From IMG/VR virus record IMGVR_UViG_2690316068_000001, positions 1-64,000 of that record: a stretch of DNA of 64,000 nt, one strand, 5' to 3'. Position 1 is the first letter of the stretch, and each line of letters starts with the position of its first letter. Positions 8,622 through 16,683 of the stretch are shown here, one piece after another. This DNA comes from a virus (taxonomy: Duplodnaviria > Heunggongvirae > Uroviricota > Caudoviricetes). Below the pieces are notes generated by a model. It was not told the origin of the DNA, searched no databases, and saw only the letters and a program-made list of their open reading frames with translations. A program made the position numbers and the translations under genes.

Positions 8622-11600
8622 TCAACTCTCGCGTAGTCATTCATCAACGGATCATCAATTGACAGTGGCACCGTGCGCATAACGCCCGGTTGAGGCGTGC
8701 TGACCTTTACGACAGTTCCCTGGCCTTTCGCCGAGTCTTTAGTGTGCTCTTCAATCCTGGCAAGCAATGAGGTCATCTGCGCAAACAGCCGCTTCGTTTC
8801 ACCATCAAGTGAAACGGTATTATCAGCCAACTGCATTGTCGGCTTGGCACCGGAGCCGCCAAGGTCACTAATAACCTGTCCGTCTATCTGCATACGACCG
8901 GTTGGTTGCTGCAAATCGTTGGCGGCAGTCGTCACCTGGGACGTGGAGGCTGGTTCAGGCACATTATTTTTCCGCATCCCCGGCGAGTTGCGGAGTTTAT
9001 CGAATAGTCCATCAATCCCCATTTGTGCGCCGAGTTGGTCAAAGTAACTTGAGTTGCTGGCCACCGGACGCGCCTCTTCGACTGGCATCGGAGTATCAAC
9101 ATACACATTGCCAGCTGCTGTTGCGGTCCCCTTCCCTCGTGCACGTTCTTCGAGCGTTCCCTGAACGACTTCCCGACGCATACCCCGGCCATTCATGAAT
9201 TTGTTGACCAGATCGTTAACACCAACAGCATTGCCAATTTTGTCTACCAGACCGCCTTTCTCAAACGGGCTATCACCAGGGGTAAACGCCAGGCCAGTAG
9301 ACTGATCGATAACAGCGTTATCAGGTATCTTTTCGTGAATTGCTGGTGCGCTATGATCTACCTTAGAGCCATAAACGGCACCATTATTGAGCATCTGCTG
9401 ATACCCTCTGACACGAGTAACATATTCGCCGGTACCGGCGACTACTCTCCCCTTATCAACATGCCCCATACCAGCATGATAGGCAGCTATTGCACGACCC
9501 TGATCACCGTTATAACGGTTCATCAGGATACTTAGGTATCTGGCGGCACCATCAGCTGCTTTTCGTGTATCCATGGCATCAGCATCGCTGAGTCCAAGAT
9601 CCTCCCTTGTACCTTTAGTGATCTGAAAAGCCCCAAGGGCAGATGAAAGTTTGTTCCCGTTTTTGTCTACTGGATTTCCAGTTCTCTGGCCTGCACTAGA
9701 CTCTGCGGAAGCAACTGCTGACAGAATCCCTTTTTCAAGCCCATACTTACGTTCAAGCTCATCAAAATAATCGGCATTGTCAGAAATCCATTGGTATCCG
9801 GCAGCATTTAATTTTGGCAAAGAAACATCCTTGCCATTGTTAAATCGACGTTTATCTATCTCATATGCACTTAATGCTTCCTCCTTACCTGTAGCAGACT
9901 GGCCCAAGGCAGCATCAATTGTTTGTGCTGCTTTATTTCCTGTTTCTACGGCATTTGCATTGATAATCTGATTAGCAGTTTCTTTAACTGTTTTATTGCT
10001 ATCTTTCGCCATATCCAGGGCCGCATTTATCACGCGGGCAGCAATATTAGTCTGTTTGGCATCGGATTCAGCTTTAGAATCAGATGTCCCCTGCTGGCTA
10101 TTAACCGGAGCTTTTAACTCTGGAGTGATTTCTTTCGCATTAGCCTCGCCGATCGGATTGGGTATTTTTGATACAATCATTGCCGCAGGGGTATTTTTAA
10201 CGGCATCAACCGCTGCATCTAATGCTTTACCTGGTAAATTTTTAACCCCATCCCAAATATTACTAGCTGCCTCTTTAATGTGTTTCCCTGGGTTCTTAAT
10301 GAAATCAATTGCACTATCAATTGCATCACTGAAAACCTGTTTCAGGTTATCGACAGTAAAGAAGTCTTTGATGGCATCCAGCTTTTCAAGCAGCTTATTA
10401 GATGTATCGCTAAACCATGCTGAAACAGCATCACCAATCTTTGCTGTGTAATCATCGAACTTGGTAGAAATGGTGTCGCCAAGGTTAGAAATATATGTTT
10501 CTAAGTTGGTAATCCCACTATCAATGGCCTGGGCAATACTTTCCGTCGAAAATGATTGCAACATATTGCCGATATCCTCAAATCCAAGTGATTTGAGAAC
10601 ATCACCAATAGCACTGCTAATACCAGATACCAGTCCCCCCAAATCAAGAACATTGGCTAACGTATAAGCGGCTTTTTGCTGGAATGATGGATCTTGTCCT
10701 GATTTAAGCCCAAACGCTCGACGTTGCGCTTCTGTATCATTCCAACCGGTTACCGCATCATAAATACCTCCAGCCACTGTGCCGACTAGGGGAATTGCGC
10801 GTAACGCCCCTTTACCAACTGCCTTTAATCCAAGTTTACCTGCTGCCCGGGCAGCCAAATCTCCGCCTTCATGGGCGAGAGTCTTCTTGCCACCACCGCG
10901 TAGCATTCCTACAAGTTTCTTTGCCCCCAGAGCGCCAAAAGCGAGTGCTCCAGCTTTTTTCAGCATGCCACGCCCCATTAACAACGACGCGACGCCACCG
11001 GCCCCCTTCCCTAACAGGCTAAATAATTTGGACAGCAAGCCGCCCTTCTTTTTCCCGGTGTTTTTGGCTATCTGATCAAGGGCGCTGAGAATCTTGTCAT
11101 TGCCCTCTTTAATTTCGCTGGTCTGATCCTGAAGTTCCTGAACCGTCCGTTTTTGGGTGTTAACCTGAACGACATCGGCACTATTTTGCGATTTACGCCT
11201 AAAAAAACCTTTTCTACGGCTGTTATCGTCATTGCCACGAATCACATCGGCAATAGACTTTCTGGCACCATTAAGCGATCCACCAACTTCTTTTGATATC
11301 CCGCCAAGCTCCTTCCCTGCGGCCCACAATGGACCAGCAACGGCATAACCTAACGCATCGACGGCGCGAGTCTCTGAAGGGTTACCTATGCCTTCAGCTA
11401 CTTTTGACAGTTTTTTTAATAAACCTGATTCAGCATTTAGACGCTCATCATCCTCTTTGCGCCTGGCCTTTTCAGCACGTTCAGCACGGGCATCTTCCGC
11501 TGCGGCCTTACTCCCTGACTTTCCAATAAAACGACCACGCGCATCGCGTTGGTTTTGGCTTTTTTGCGCACCGCCTTTTTGACCGAACATTTCGCGAGCG

Positions 11601-14312: not shown

Positions 14313-15497
14313 TCAAGCCTTAAGAGGCTTTGTGTATGTTCGTGTAATCCAACCAGTAATAAACTCATCCCCTGATTTAACCTGCACGTAAAGCCATTGA
14401 CGATCTTTCTTATCTAAAATAGCAACAATTGTGTTTTTGCCAATGCATTCAATCACTTCACTATTTAAAGAAGGACTGACATGTAATCTTACGTTATCAC
14501 CAGTTATAAACCTAAAACCATTGAGATCTTCCCACTTAATTTCTGTGTTTTCTTTAATTAATTTTTGTTTTGATATTGGTGCATCCTCATATAGGGATAC
14601 AGAATATGATTCTGTCTTGTGTATTTGCGATAAGATTTGTTCTTTTGCATAATCAGCAATAGCGCCAAGCACCACTTCTGTTAAAAGCCACATAATAATA
14701 AACTGAAGCGGGTGAGGGAGCGACTTAAATGAATCAATGAACGTCGAACTGGATTTATTTAATCCTTTGTCTTGAACATCACTTTCGTTGTGAGATGTTT
14801 CAATAGCACCTTCGACATAAGCCTGTGCAATTGATGAAAGACTTTGCTCCATTATTTGATGTAATGAAGCCTTTTGCGCTAGGGTATATTGTTTTAATGA
14901 TTCTTTTATTTCATTGTTTAAATCTATCTTATGACTTACATTTTGTCGCAATTCATTAAGTATTGCTTGCATGTTATTTAAACCAGCTTGCTTATTAAGC
15001 ATCTCGAACTGGTTTCGTAACGGCATAGCAATTTCTGCCTGCTTCCTTAGCATTTGAATGTATTTATTTGCATCATGCGGGGGATAAACCTTGGCCTGTT
15101 TCTGTAGAATTTCAAGAAATTCACGATGCTTGCTATTTATTCTTCTCAAGCTCGTCATGTTCGCAAGCTGTTTTTTAACAGAATCACTAAGTAACGATTG
15201 CAAATTCAATCTTGCTATTTGTTCTTGAGCTAGCCGCCCTATTCTTAACTGTTCTTGCAAGTTTGCCATATGTTCTCTATACGATGGAATGATTGCGTTT
15301 TTTTGCAGTTCTGCCAACTGTCTAACCAAATTATTAGAAGCATATTCTGATTTTAATAAATCACTTGCCGATGTATATCCTGGCATTTTGATTTTACTTA
15401 AATTATCACGCCAGGTAATATTTGAATCTCTATTATAGAGATCGCTTACTGAGCCAAGTGCAAGTTTTTTAATATCCTTCACTTTATTCACCGTCAT
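14313..15497 (-). CDS. Coiled-coil membrane protein with C-terminal SH3b-like domain
   Basis: 394 aa; Q/L-rich heptads, one TM segment (PLQFIIMWLLTEVVLGAIA), C-terminal SH3b-like fold; AT-rich codon usage unlike flanking genes. Confidence 0.55.
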   Translation of the reverse strand: MTVNKVKDIKKLALGSVSDLYNRDSNITWRDNLSKIKMPGYTSASDLLKSEYASNNLVRQLAELQKNAIIPSYREHMANLQEQLRIGRLAQEQIARLNLQSLLSDSVKKQLANMTSLRRINSKHREFLEILQKQAKVYPPHDANKYIQMLRKQAEIAMPLRNQFEMLNKQAGLNNMQAILNELRQNVSHKIDLNNEIKESLKQYTLAQKASLHQIMEQSLSSIAQAYVEGAIETSHNESDVQDKGLNKSSSTFIDSFKSLPHPLQFIIMWLLTEVVLGAIADYAKEQILSQIHKTESYSVSLYEDAPISKQKLIKENTEIKWEDLNGFRFITGDNVRLHVSPSLNSEVIECIGKNTIVAILDKKDRQWLYVQVKSGDEFITGWITRTYTKPLKA

Positions 15498-15990
15498 CTT
15501 GCTTTAAACATCCATCATTTTTAGCTTCCTTGTAAATACTTGAAATTCCATCAAGAGAGAATGATGTAATTCGACGCGATCCGATATATACATCCATGTT
15601 TTTTTCTTTTGTGGCTGACGCTGACTTCCAAAAAGAATACCATTCCCTACGATTTGGAGCAGTGTTTTGCGTACCAATATTAAAGCTATCCGAACCAACA
15701 ATTAAGGTAATTACATCAGCTTTACGAGAAATTGTGTCGCGTGTAGAAAAATCAGCATTCTCTTTCCCTCCACTTACATACAAATTTCTTCCAGCTATAT
15801 GATCTTCGGAACCTTCCCTTGCTCCAGCATCACAAGAAAAGTTAATTGTATAACCATCGTCATTGGTTGCAGAGATTTCTCTCCACCCTTGCTCACCTCC
15901 TACCGTCCAAACGGTAGAACCTGCCATTGCTGATAATGGCAGAAAAGAGGACATTAATAAAAAGCTATACAATGACTTATATAATTTCAT
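15484..15990 (-). CDS. Secreted protein (signal peptide), unknown function
   Basis: 168 aa, N-terminal signal-like MKLYKSLYSFLLMSSFLPLSAMA; AT-rich. Confidence 0.55.
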   Translation of the reverse strand: MKLYKSLYSFLLMSSFLPLSAMAGSTVWTVGGEQGWREISATNDDGYTINFSCDAGAREGSEDHIAGRNLYVSGGKENADFSTRDTISRKADVITLIVGSDSFNIGTQNTAPNRREWYSFWKSASATKEKNMDVYIGSRRITSFSLDGISSIYKEAKNDGCLKQDDGE

Positions 15991-16078
15991 ATTTTTATCC
16001 TTTTTGTTTTAGATATTATAGGCATAGTCCATATTGTTAGATCCACTATGCCCAGAGAATTTAATATTATTCATTAAA

Positions 16079-16570
16079 TTATGGAGCTACACCCGGCCCC
16101 CTGGCTCGTTCTTCAAGCGTACCCTGCACGTTTTGATGGCGCATTCCTGGGGCATTTCTGATTGAGTCAATGCCATTTCTTCCAACATCTTCTTTATTAA
16201 CGGCATTGCTCGCCACCAGCACACCCCAGCTAGGGATAGCAAAATCAGGAGCTGTTTCGCATGCCTTTACCATATAATCGAAAGTGCTTCGATTGATCTC
16301 ATTTGCATCGGGGTTTAATAGGCGAGAATATTGGTATTTAGCATTTGCGTTGGTTGAGACTTTATACAGTTCCTGCTGCACCATCGCTTCAGAAAGTTTA
16401 AGGCGCTTCATATCTGACAGTAACTTCTTGCGCATGGATTCGTCTTCACTGACAGCAAATCCGTAAACGTGCCCAAGGTATTTCGTATAATCGGTACAAA
16501 TCTCCTTTACGCTTGATGCTGCATTAACAGTCCCAGCCATAAATAATAACGGTAGTAATAGTTTTCTCAT
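16079..16570 (-). CDS. Secreted protein with C-terminal segment homologous to an internal segment of the SLT tape-measure protein
   Basis: ORF-track frame 16079-16597; likely start ATG 16568-16570 (MRKLLLPLLFMAGTVNA signal) with GGTGAGG SD. C-terminus …NAPGMRHQNVQGTLEERARG… matches 8618-11992 product …NGRGMRREVVQGTLEERARG…. Confidence 0.6.
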   Translation of the reverse strand: MRKLLLPLLFMAGTVNAASSVKEICTDYTKYLGHVYGFAVSEDESMRKKLLSDMKRLKLSEAMVQQELYKVSTNANAKYQYSRLLNPDANEINRSTFDYMVKACETAPDFAIPSWGVLVASNAVNKEDVGRNGIDSIRNAPGMRHQNVQGTLEERARGPGVAP

Positions 16571-16666
16571 TATAACCTCACCTGCCTTATAACTCATTTA
16601 GGGTACATATTTTCGCCTTTAAAAAAAAGAGGTTATTAGATCCAATTGTGCATTTATTAAACAAAC

Positions 16667-16683
16667 AATGCTCTAATAAATTT
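16667..16683 (+). promoter_or_regulatory. C1-operator-like 17-mer (aatgctctaataaattt)
   Basis: Match to ATTGCTCTAATAAATTT consensus; upstream of icd/ant module. Confidence 0.6.

Follow-up and report, generated by a model that had tools for sequence, protein, structure and literature searches.

The closest described counterpart of the gene studied here is found in phage P1, where simA, simB and simC form the sim locus between pmgC/LPsit and the operator Oc4 of immI, and where SimC is annotated as the superimmunity protein. We have analysed the first 64,000 nucleotides of the virus record IMGVR_UViG_2690316068_000001 (this whole stretch is called the window in the following), which belong to a P1-like phage-plasmid (Punavirus). 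The window contains a simA-like gene in the same slot and with the same N-terminal coding sequence, and the C-terminal tail of its product resembles an internal segment of Sit, the tape-measure protein encoded in the same window. In P1, by contrast, simA is a remnant of 52 amino acids (aa) without the domain and without the motif described below. SimB and SimC of P1, which like SimA start with a signal-peptide-like sequence, are unrelated in sequence to Sit and to the three proteins encoded in the slot of the window. When SimC was compared by BLASTP with all open reading frames (ORFs) of the window, no match was found, and SimC belongs to another PHROG (phrog_14355).

Exclusion at the tape-measure step is already known. 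Two prophage proteins, the lipoprotein Ltp of the Streptococcus phage TP-J34 and the inner-membrane protein gp15 of HK97, are located outside the cytoplasm, have the tape-measure protein of the incoming phage as their target and act after adsorption on the DNA entry that depends on it. Short linear motifs that compete for a periplasmic partner are found in the colicins, whose TolB and TonB boxes lie in disordered regions and mimic host ligands. Neither Ltp nor gp15 nor Imm of phage T4 is, to our knowledge, described as carrying a copy of part of its target. Imm, which is integral to the inner membrane, binds gp29, the tape-measure protein of T4, at a helical-bundle domain and is proposed to stop genome entry via the ejected tape measure (bioRxiv 10.64898/2026.03.06.709160).

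By analogy to Imm, the proposed SimA would be a phage-encoded envelope protein that is aimed at the tape-measure step. However, no copy of a tape-measure segment is reported for Imm, whereas SimA seems to be a soluble protein of the periplasm that is similar to its putative target instead of complementary to it. No Pfam or PADLOC link connects SimA with Ltp or gp15. To the colicin boxes there is an analogy of concept, with no sequence resemblance on inspection, and what SimA would mimic belongs to the phage and not to the host. The shared peptide appears to be the sole link of SimA to the exclusion proteins that target a tape measure, and copying a segment of the target would be new among them. 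A similarity between SimA and Sit is not mentioned in the P1 literature that was covered; the original P1 genome paper (PMC523184) was outside that coverage.

The tail of SimA matches an internal segment of Sit

The initial annotation had reported that the C-terminus of the simA product matches an internal segment of the SLT-domain protein, and this was confirmed in position as well as in sequence. When SimA, with its C-terminal tail NAPGMRHQNVQGTLEERARGPG, was compared with Sit in a single BLASTP comparison, its residues 131-171 aligned to the Sit residues 921-957 with 21 of 41 positions identical (E=1e-7). A second segment paired the SimA residues 143-157 with the Sit residues 997-1011 (9/15 identities, E=0.002). 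When SimA was compared with every ORF in the six frames of the window, Sit was the sole match (E=7e-6, or E=5e-7 for the 224-aa allele of phage Ro157c2YLVW), and a hidden Markov model (HMM) of the motif recovered Sit and SimA only from the 64 kb. At the profile level, hhalign aligned a six-sequence SimA profile with a seven-sequence Sit profile over 29 columns with a probability of 96.4% (E=1.1e-9). The Sit profile of PHROG, which was built independently, also matched the tail of SimA, both in the window allele (E=1.8e-5) and in the 224-aa allele (E=1.3e-7).

The similarity extends on both sides of the core. In the 224-aa allele it continues with RARGPGTNSPMGNL, compared with RAYGRGTTTTMGNV in the D6-type Sit, and upstream the SimA sequence GIDSI--RNAPGMR resembles the second copy in Sit (GIDGLFDKLRNSPGMR). 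From these alignments the homologous segment covers roughly 30-45 residues. The core follows the consensus [FL]-x-N-x-x-G-M-R-x-[QE]-x-V-[QE]-G-T-L-x-x-R-A-x-G.

We then considered how specific the motif is. A degenerate DNA pattern of the core had at least 131 matches in the IMG/VR viral contigs; those listed comprised 94 in Sit and 37 in SimA, with none elsewhere. A phmmer search with the Sit residues 890-960 against 1.84 billion cluster representatives returned two full-length Sit clusters, fragments and a single non-Sit match (P0157), which is a repetitive spurious ORF. When a 120-aa Sit fragment was used in a word-indexed protein search, seven short fragments and nothing further were obtained. 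SimA is missing from the phmmer result (E<=0.001) since a match of 38 bits is not significant against 1.8e9 sequences, and the significance of the SimA-Sit match therefore rests on the restricted and profile-level comparisons and on conservation. The searches indicate that the motif is private to the Sit and SimA families of this phage group.

The shared peptide is conserved in both genes

In the 17-codon core of the window, 14 amino acids are shared between SimA and Sit. Among the 13 degenerate codons for identical residues, 8 differ synonymously, and the corresponding counts were 9/9, 7/10 and 8/11 in three further lineages (L052, L003 and L005). The DNA homology of about 60 bp that had been noted initially was recovered as 37 identical nucleotides of 51 over the core, which is about what the coding constraint alone gives. 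In 17 aligned intact SimA homologues, which are 58-98% identical, the G-M-R core was invariant or nearly so; G151 and R153 are invariant, and N148, M152 and Q155 are nearly so. The codon comparison and the conservation indicate that the copy is ancient and that purifying selection keeps the peptide in both genes.

The matching block is a conserved site of Sit

Sit is the tape-measure protein and has a lytic transglycosylase domain (PMC9024508). It is unresolved in the cryo-EM structures of the P1 virion (PMC12810830), and no host entry partner is named for Sit in the P1 literature that was covered. Among 11 Sit representatives that are 50-100% identical, the conservation of the block that includes the SimA-like segment was 0.8-0.9, compared with 0.35-0.45 in the flanking linkers. 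The block was kept in all P1-like and D6-like Sit proteins examined, regardless of whether the simA gene in the same element was intact or truncated. In P1, sit is essential and simA is non-essential (PMC10695390). Since the conservation peak persists where simA is truncated and sit is essential, the block is an intrinsic functional site of an essential protein.

The second, shorter copy of the core lies inside an insertion of about 43 residues (window 8960-9090, residues ~964-1011), which is found in the Sit proteins of the E. coli group only and is lacking in the D6-like ones. Two alleles of this insertion circulate, FDKLRNSPGMRKNN and YDKLINARGMRSNN. Another variation was seen near the N-terminus, where P0034 and about 40 similar Sit proteins of 1223 residues have a tandem duplication of 99 residues (residue 35 repeats at residue 134). 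In a tape-measure protein, such a duplication would be expected to lengthen the tail by about 15 nm (1.5 Å per residue).

SimA is predicted to have a helical domain and a flexible tail

The coordinates of all features are listed in Table 1. The N-terminus of SimA fits the layout of a Sec signal peptide on inspection, with MRK, LLLPLLFMAGTV and a junction between NA and AS in succession. The cysteines C34 and C113 are invariant in the SimA family, and both would fit a disulphide formed in the periplasm. From these features SimA is probably exported to the periplasm.

The AlphaFold2 model of SimA was built on a 17-sequence alignment. The tail that carries the motif had a predicted local distance difference test score (pLDDT) of about 50 and was not docked on the helical domain. 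Judged from the model, the shared peptide appears to be a linear motif that is exposed on a flexible tail.

No family of Pfam, NCBIfam or PADLOC matched SimA above threshold. The Pfam family PF14566 (PTPlike_phytase) was found below its gathering threshold of 27 bits, with 25.2 bits for the window allele and 26.4 bits for the 224-aa allele; the profile positions 47-132 of 158 aligned to the product residues 34-118. It has no fold support and is probably spurious. The same sub-threshold match recurs consistently in many members of the SimA family.

Table 1. Positions of the simA-like gene, sit and neighbouring features in the window
Feature	Position	Strand	Basis
simA-like gene, 172 aa from the first ATG; likely true start ATG 16570, giving a 163-aa precursor	16079..16597	-	phrog_3933; N-terminus of P1 SimA; Shine-Dalgarno-like site
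Signal-peptide-like N-terminus of SimA, MRKLLLPLLFMAGTVNA; probable cleavage before ASS (between VNA and A)	16520..16570	-	By eye: basic n-region, 12-residue hydrophobic core, AXA-type site
Predicted globular all-helical domain of SimA, ~aa 28-135	16193..16516	-	AlphaFold2, pLDDT >90
Sit-like linear motif of SimA, aa 141-169, NGIDSIRNAPGMRHQNVQGTLEERARGPG	16091..16177	-	BLASTP, motif HMM, hhalign, PHROG profile; low-confidence tail of the model
Last three codons and stop (VAP*) of simA, beyond the cassette-exchange junction	16079..16090	-	DNA alignment with phage Ro157c2YLVW
sit, tape-measure protein / structural injection transglycosylase, 1124 aa	8618..11992	-	SLT domain aa 742-847 (Pfam SLT, E=2.3e-14); P1 synteny; PMC9024508, PMC12810830
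Conserved block of Sit, aa 895-957 (...VGVNDLVNKFMNGRGMRREVVQGTLEERARGKGT)	9122..9310	-	Conservation peak; C-terminal half, aa 921-957 (9122-9232), matches SimA
Second, shorter core copy in Sit, aa 997-1011, FDKLRNSPGMRKNNV	8960..9004	-	Inside the ~43-aa insertion; BLASTP, motif HMM, alignment
168-aa protein with signal-peptide-like N-terminus	15484..15990	-	phrog_3429 (E=4e-70); 28% identity to the 158-aa neighbour in Ro157
394-aa protein, specific to the window cassette	14313..15497	-	Hydrophobic helix aa 263-281 (hydropathy); Pfam SH3_3-like C-terminus, E=1.1e-5, under the family cutoff; phrog_7086
Oc4, operator of the C1 repressor, AATGCTCTAATAAATTT	16667..16683	+	Exact match to the operator annotated in P1; between simA and c4; marks the immI boundary of the sim locus

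P1 simA is a truncated form of a larger gene family

The product of the window gene matched the profile phrog_3933 ("simA domain protein") with E=2.4e-113 over the residues 10-171, and its homologues in the protein databases have the same name. P1 SimA is annotated as a protein of 52 residues, MSYKAGEVIMRKLLLPLLFMAGTVNAASSVKEICTDYTKYLGHVYAFAINDY (P1 is L001, 2995-3153). The first ~47 residues of the window protein are those of P1 SimA except for one G/A exchange, up to the point where the 52-residue product diverges, and the region upstream of simA is 98% identical to P1. Since the ORF of the window shares the start of P1 SimA and runs to 172 residues, P1 simA is a truncated remnant of a family of 163-246 residues. 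By this alignment the window gene is the near-full-length form of the protein that is left as a 52-aa stub in P1, where most of simA, along with its neighbour, seems to have given way to the simB-simC cassette.

The start codon that had been given initially (ATG 16570) is probably the true one because the Shine-Dalgarno-like sequence GGTGAGG lies just upstream of it, as the second ATG of the ORF, and many of the database homologues begin there. The sequence comparisons place SimA in the simA family and not with SimC, Sit or other SLT proteins, the PTP-like phytases or any PADLOC family. In PADLOC-DB no family was found at E<=0.01 for SimA, SimC or the 168-aa and 394-aa neighbours. With respect to the Sit family (phrog_2533), SimA is not a member; it aligns only to the positions 927-963 of 1130 and has no SLT domain.

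Homologues of SimA were found solely in P1-like and D6-like elements of Escherichia, Salmonella and Klebsiella, in 26 protein clusters and 68 viral contigs. A scan of genome contigs gave 4 loci only. In PLSDB, the gene is present in 267 plasmids; it is full-length in 126 of these, and the rest have the P1-type stub. The window gene lies between pmgC/LPsit and Oc4-c4-icd-ant, and the same synteny was observed in 6 divergent loci.

The SimA family is a mosaic beyond the G-M-R-x-Q core. The protein either continues with V(Q/E)GTLE(E/S)RARG and ends, or proceeds with a coiled segment to PYEW as in the 224-aa allele, or changes to Cys-pair modules. The last type is seen in many alleles (P0010-P0025, alignment columns ~170-275), which switch after GMRxQ to one or two modules of about 40 residues with the pattern Cys-x~30-Cys. 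The conserved GMRxQ core thus marks where the constant domain ends and the variable modules of the C-terminus begin.

The window allele and the 224-aa allele of Ro157c2YLVW are about 97% identical in their DNA up to ...GGGCCGGGT (16091), and then unrelated AT-rich cassette DNA follows. Because of this sharp junction at 16090/16091, the window allele ends with VAP*, three codons after RARGPG. The same junction brings in the genes for the 168-aa and the 394-aa proteins. The short allele of the window type (172 residues, in E. coli) is common (one cluster has n=153 members, and about 15 viral contigs carry it), and a separate short allele of 179 residues occurs in Salmonella, so alleles that stop just past the motif exist in two lineages. 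Beyond what the initial annotation contained, the analysis has thus added the intact form of P1 simA, the two core copies in Sit, the longer homology and the allele truncated at the junction.

The neighbouring genes of the sim slot

On the minus strand, the gene order of the window is S, R, 16, bplA, pmgA, sit, pmgB, tub and pmgC, followed by three ORFs at 14313-16597. Beyond these lie the C1 operator Oc4 and then, on the plus strand, c4/icd/ant1, kilA and repL. The surroundings of sit are syntenic with R-16-bplA-pmgA-sit-pmgB-tub-pmgC of P1, the three ORFs fill the slot of simC-simB-simA, and about 1/3 of the stretch aligns to P1 DNA. The sim slot is one of the eight hypervariable regions of P1-like plasmids and a hot spot of cassette exchange (PMC9603915). 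Oc4 lies a few bases upstream of the -35 region of the simA promoter, which is predicted in the P1 annotation and was transferred by homology. From this position the C1 repressor could influence the expression of simA.

A Pfam search with the 168-aa protein gave no match. PF27224 (YfjT) is recorded on the neighbours of simA in D6-like loci, and in each of the E. coli, Salmonella and Klebsiella lineages examined, simA was followed downstream by a YfjT-family protein of ~155-168 residues with a signal-peptide-like N-terminus. The two genes may form the ancestral unit of the locus. The 394-aa protein weakly matched an amidase PHROG at the C-terminus of the latter. Its gene starts within the last 14 nt of the 168-aa gene, and this overlap suggests that the two genes are translationally coupled.

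P1 and P7 have alternative cassettes at the sim locus, and most of the products have annotated or sequence-apparent signal peptides. We searched SimB, SimC and the 168-aa and 394-aa proteins for Sit-like segments and found none; the motif was also absent from the P7 cassette (Upf50.5 and Upf50.0). The 224-aa SimA (L002, 2246-2920) ends with PYEW and Upf50.0 of P7 (L083, 540-1079) with SSWW. Aromatic C-termini of this kind are reminiscent of the C-terminal signals of outer-membrane proteins.

Discussion

We consider it quite possible, at somewhat less than an even chance, that SimA is a competitive mimic of Sit and excludes superinfecting phages at the step of DNA entry, and of the readings considered this one is the most likely. 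More tentatively, we propose that SimA is a periplasmic decoy that displays the docking peptide of Sit, copying a motif of the injected protein instead of binding the injected protein or its receptor. If SimA is such a decoy, the shared peptide might mark the site where the tape measure of P1 meets a partner during DNA entry, a suggestion to be held with similar caution.

The decoy could act as follows. Once the tail of a related phage has contracted and Sit has been ejected into the periplasm, the conserved block of Sit (with two core copies in the phages of the E. coli group) would have to dock on a partner and thereby open the route for the DNA. Candidates for this partner are a component of the host envelope, another Sit chain or the lumen of the tube or hub. 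SimA, which would already be in the periplasm of the lysogen, would display this peptide as well, attached to a bulky domain. SimA would then either occupy the docking partner or co-assemble with Sit as a poison subunit, and the DNA of the related phage would be blocked from entry. In this scheme we infer that SimA is exported to the periplasm and expressed in the lysogen, that a partner exists and which one it is, and that exclusion takes place. A role as a decoy in exclusion is plausible from the location and architecture of SimA; the signal-peptide-like N-terminus, the invariant cysteines, the arrangement of a domain with a motif-bearing tail, the position of the sim locus next to immI and the private motif are all consistent with it.

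Several points weigh against a decoy. Exclusion, binding and export are putative, and the signal peptide was judged by eye. SimC is the sole Sim protein of P1 with a demonstrated function and is unrelated to SimA, and the simA of P1 itself is a stub. No PADLOC match was obtained. The AlphaFold model of the Sit residues 720-1124 (mean pLDDT 39) was uninformative on the exposure of the block; the search with full-length Sit listed near-identical proteins only, and no deep alignment stood behind the model. Judged from the family alignment, the GTLEERARG half of the motif is dispensable for the role of SimA, as many alleles keep just N-x-x-G-M-R-x-Q and then continue with unrelated Cys-pair modules.

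The tests of co-variation between SimA and Sit disagree. When only the main Sit motif was used, the cognate pairs did not score above the non-cognate pairs (p=0.19 for the core and p=0.58 for the full motif). When the better of both Sit copies was taken, the cognate pairs agreed at 7.33 and the non-cognate pairs at 6.67 of 13 positions (permutation p=0.004); this speaks for a decoy, but the value overstates the evidence since the sample consists of 15 distinct SimA/Sit type pairs that are phylogenetically non-independent. SimA and Sit of the E. coli group both have EERARG, whereas the D6-group Sit has AERAYG versus ESRARG or MERARG in SimA. The dipeptide in front of GMR agrees in 4/7 D6-like lineages. 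Tracking of the cognate Sit, which had been put forward initially as a check, is thus weak and dependent on the method, and the sequences are suggestive only.

A conserved third partner would account for the independent conservation of the two copies no less well than tracking does. This leads to the strongest alternative, that SimA uses the Sit-derived peptide on the same envelope component for a role in lysogenic conversion or housekeeping, without any exclusion. The partner could be the peptidoglycan-remodelling machinery or a protein of the inner membrane or periplasm, and SimA could modulate the host wall, protect the lysogen from Sit-like transglycosylases or sense an incoming phage. The conservation, the privacy of the motif and the architecture of SimA speak for such a role as they do for a decoy, and so does the lack of clear co-variation. 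The constant YfjT-family neighbour has a signal-peptide-like N-terminus as well, and the cassette of the window adds a membrane protein with an SH3_3-like and possibly wall-binding domain. However, the locus is known for the superimmunity of P1, and a motif that is found only in the tape-measure protein of this phage group points to a role directed at phages rather than at the host. We regard this alternative as unlikely, but it deserves serious attention.

Somewhat less probable still is a captured module, in which an ancient partial duplication of sit gave rise to the linker or tail of SimA and was kept for the structure of SimA, with no present tie to Sit. The peptide could fold back on the helical domain or join the domain to the C-terminal modules. 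Its position is precisely the one where the conserved domain gives way to the variable part, which consists of Cys-pair hairpins or a coiled segment or is missing, and the segment is prone to duplication, as the second partial copy in Sit shows. Against this, two proteins in unrelated contexts would have to stay identical at 10-14 of the 17 core positions in four lineages despite a nearly saturated synonymous divergence. The tail was left undocked by AlphaFold, and alleles that stop just past the motif are common, so the peptide is not merely a linker.

The initial annotation had also considered a recombination scar. A recent scar, or a gene conversion between sit and simA without a selected function, is very improbable and largely refuted, although a recombination junction lies three codons past the motif in the window allele, cassettes are known to be exchanged frequently at the sim locus (PMC9603915), and the E. 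coli-group proteins have EERARG in common compared with AERAYG in the D6-group Sit. The junction joins simA to an unrelated cassette and not to sit. Since the synonymous sites have largely diverged in all four lineages compared above and the motif is conserved both in every Sit examined and in SimA of Escherichia, Salmonella and Klebsiella elements, the match is no recent and functionless exchange. A chance resemblance or a common low-complexity motif, the other doubts raised initially, can be dismissed, for although the match is short and SimA does not reach E<=0.001 in the search of 1.84 billion sequences, the E-values in the relevant search spaces are 1e-5 to 1e-9, the composition is not of low complexity and no other protein among those searched has the motif.

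How the DNA of contractile-tail phages passes the periplasm and the inner membrane is poorly understood, and a selected peptide of about 30 residues singles out a specific site of Sit that can be mutated. Should the proposal of SimA as a decoy fail, the locus would still be a clean case of an ancient intragenomic capture of a segment that was kept by selection. If SimA is a decoy, mimicry of the injected protein would join the known strategies of exclusion and would explain why the full-length simA is kept in about half of the P1-like phage-plasmids. It would then also bear on transduction and on the spread of the P1-like plasmids that carry resistance genes.

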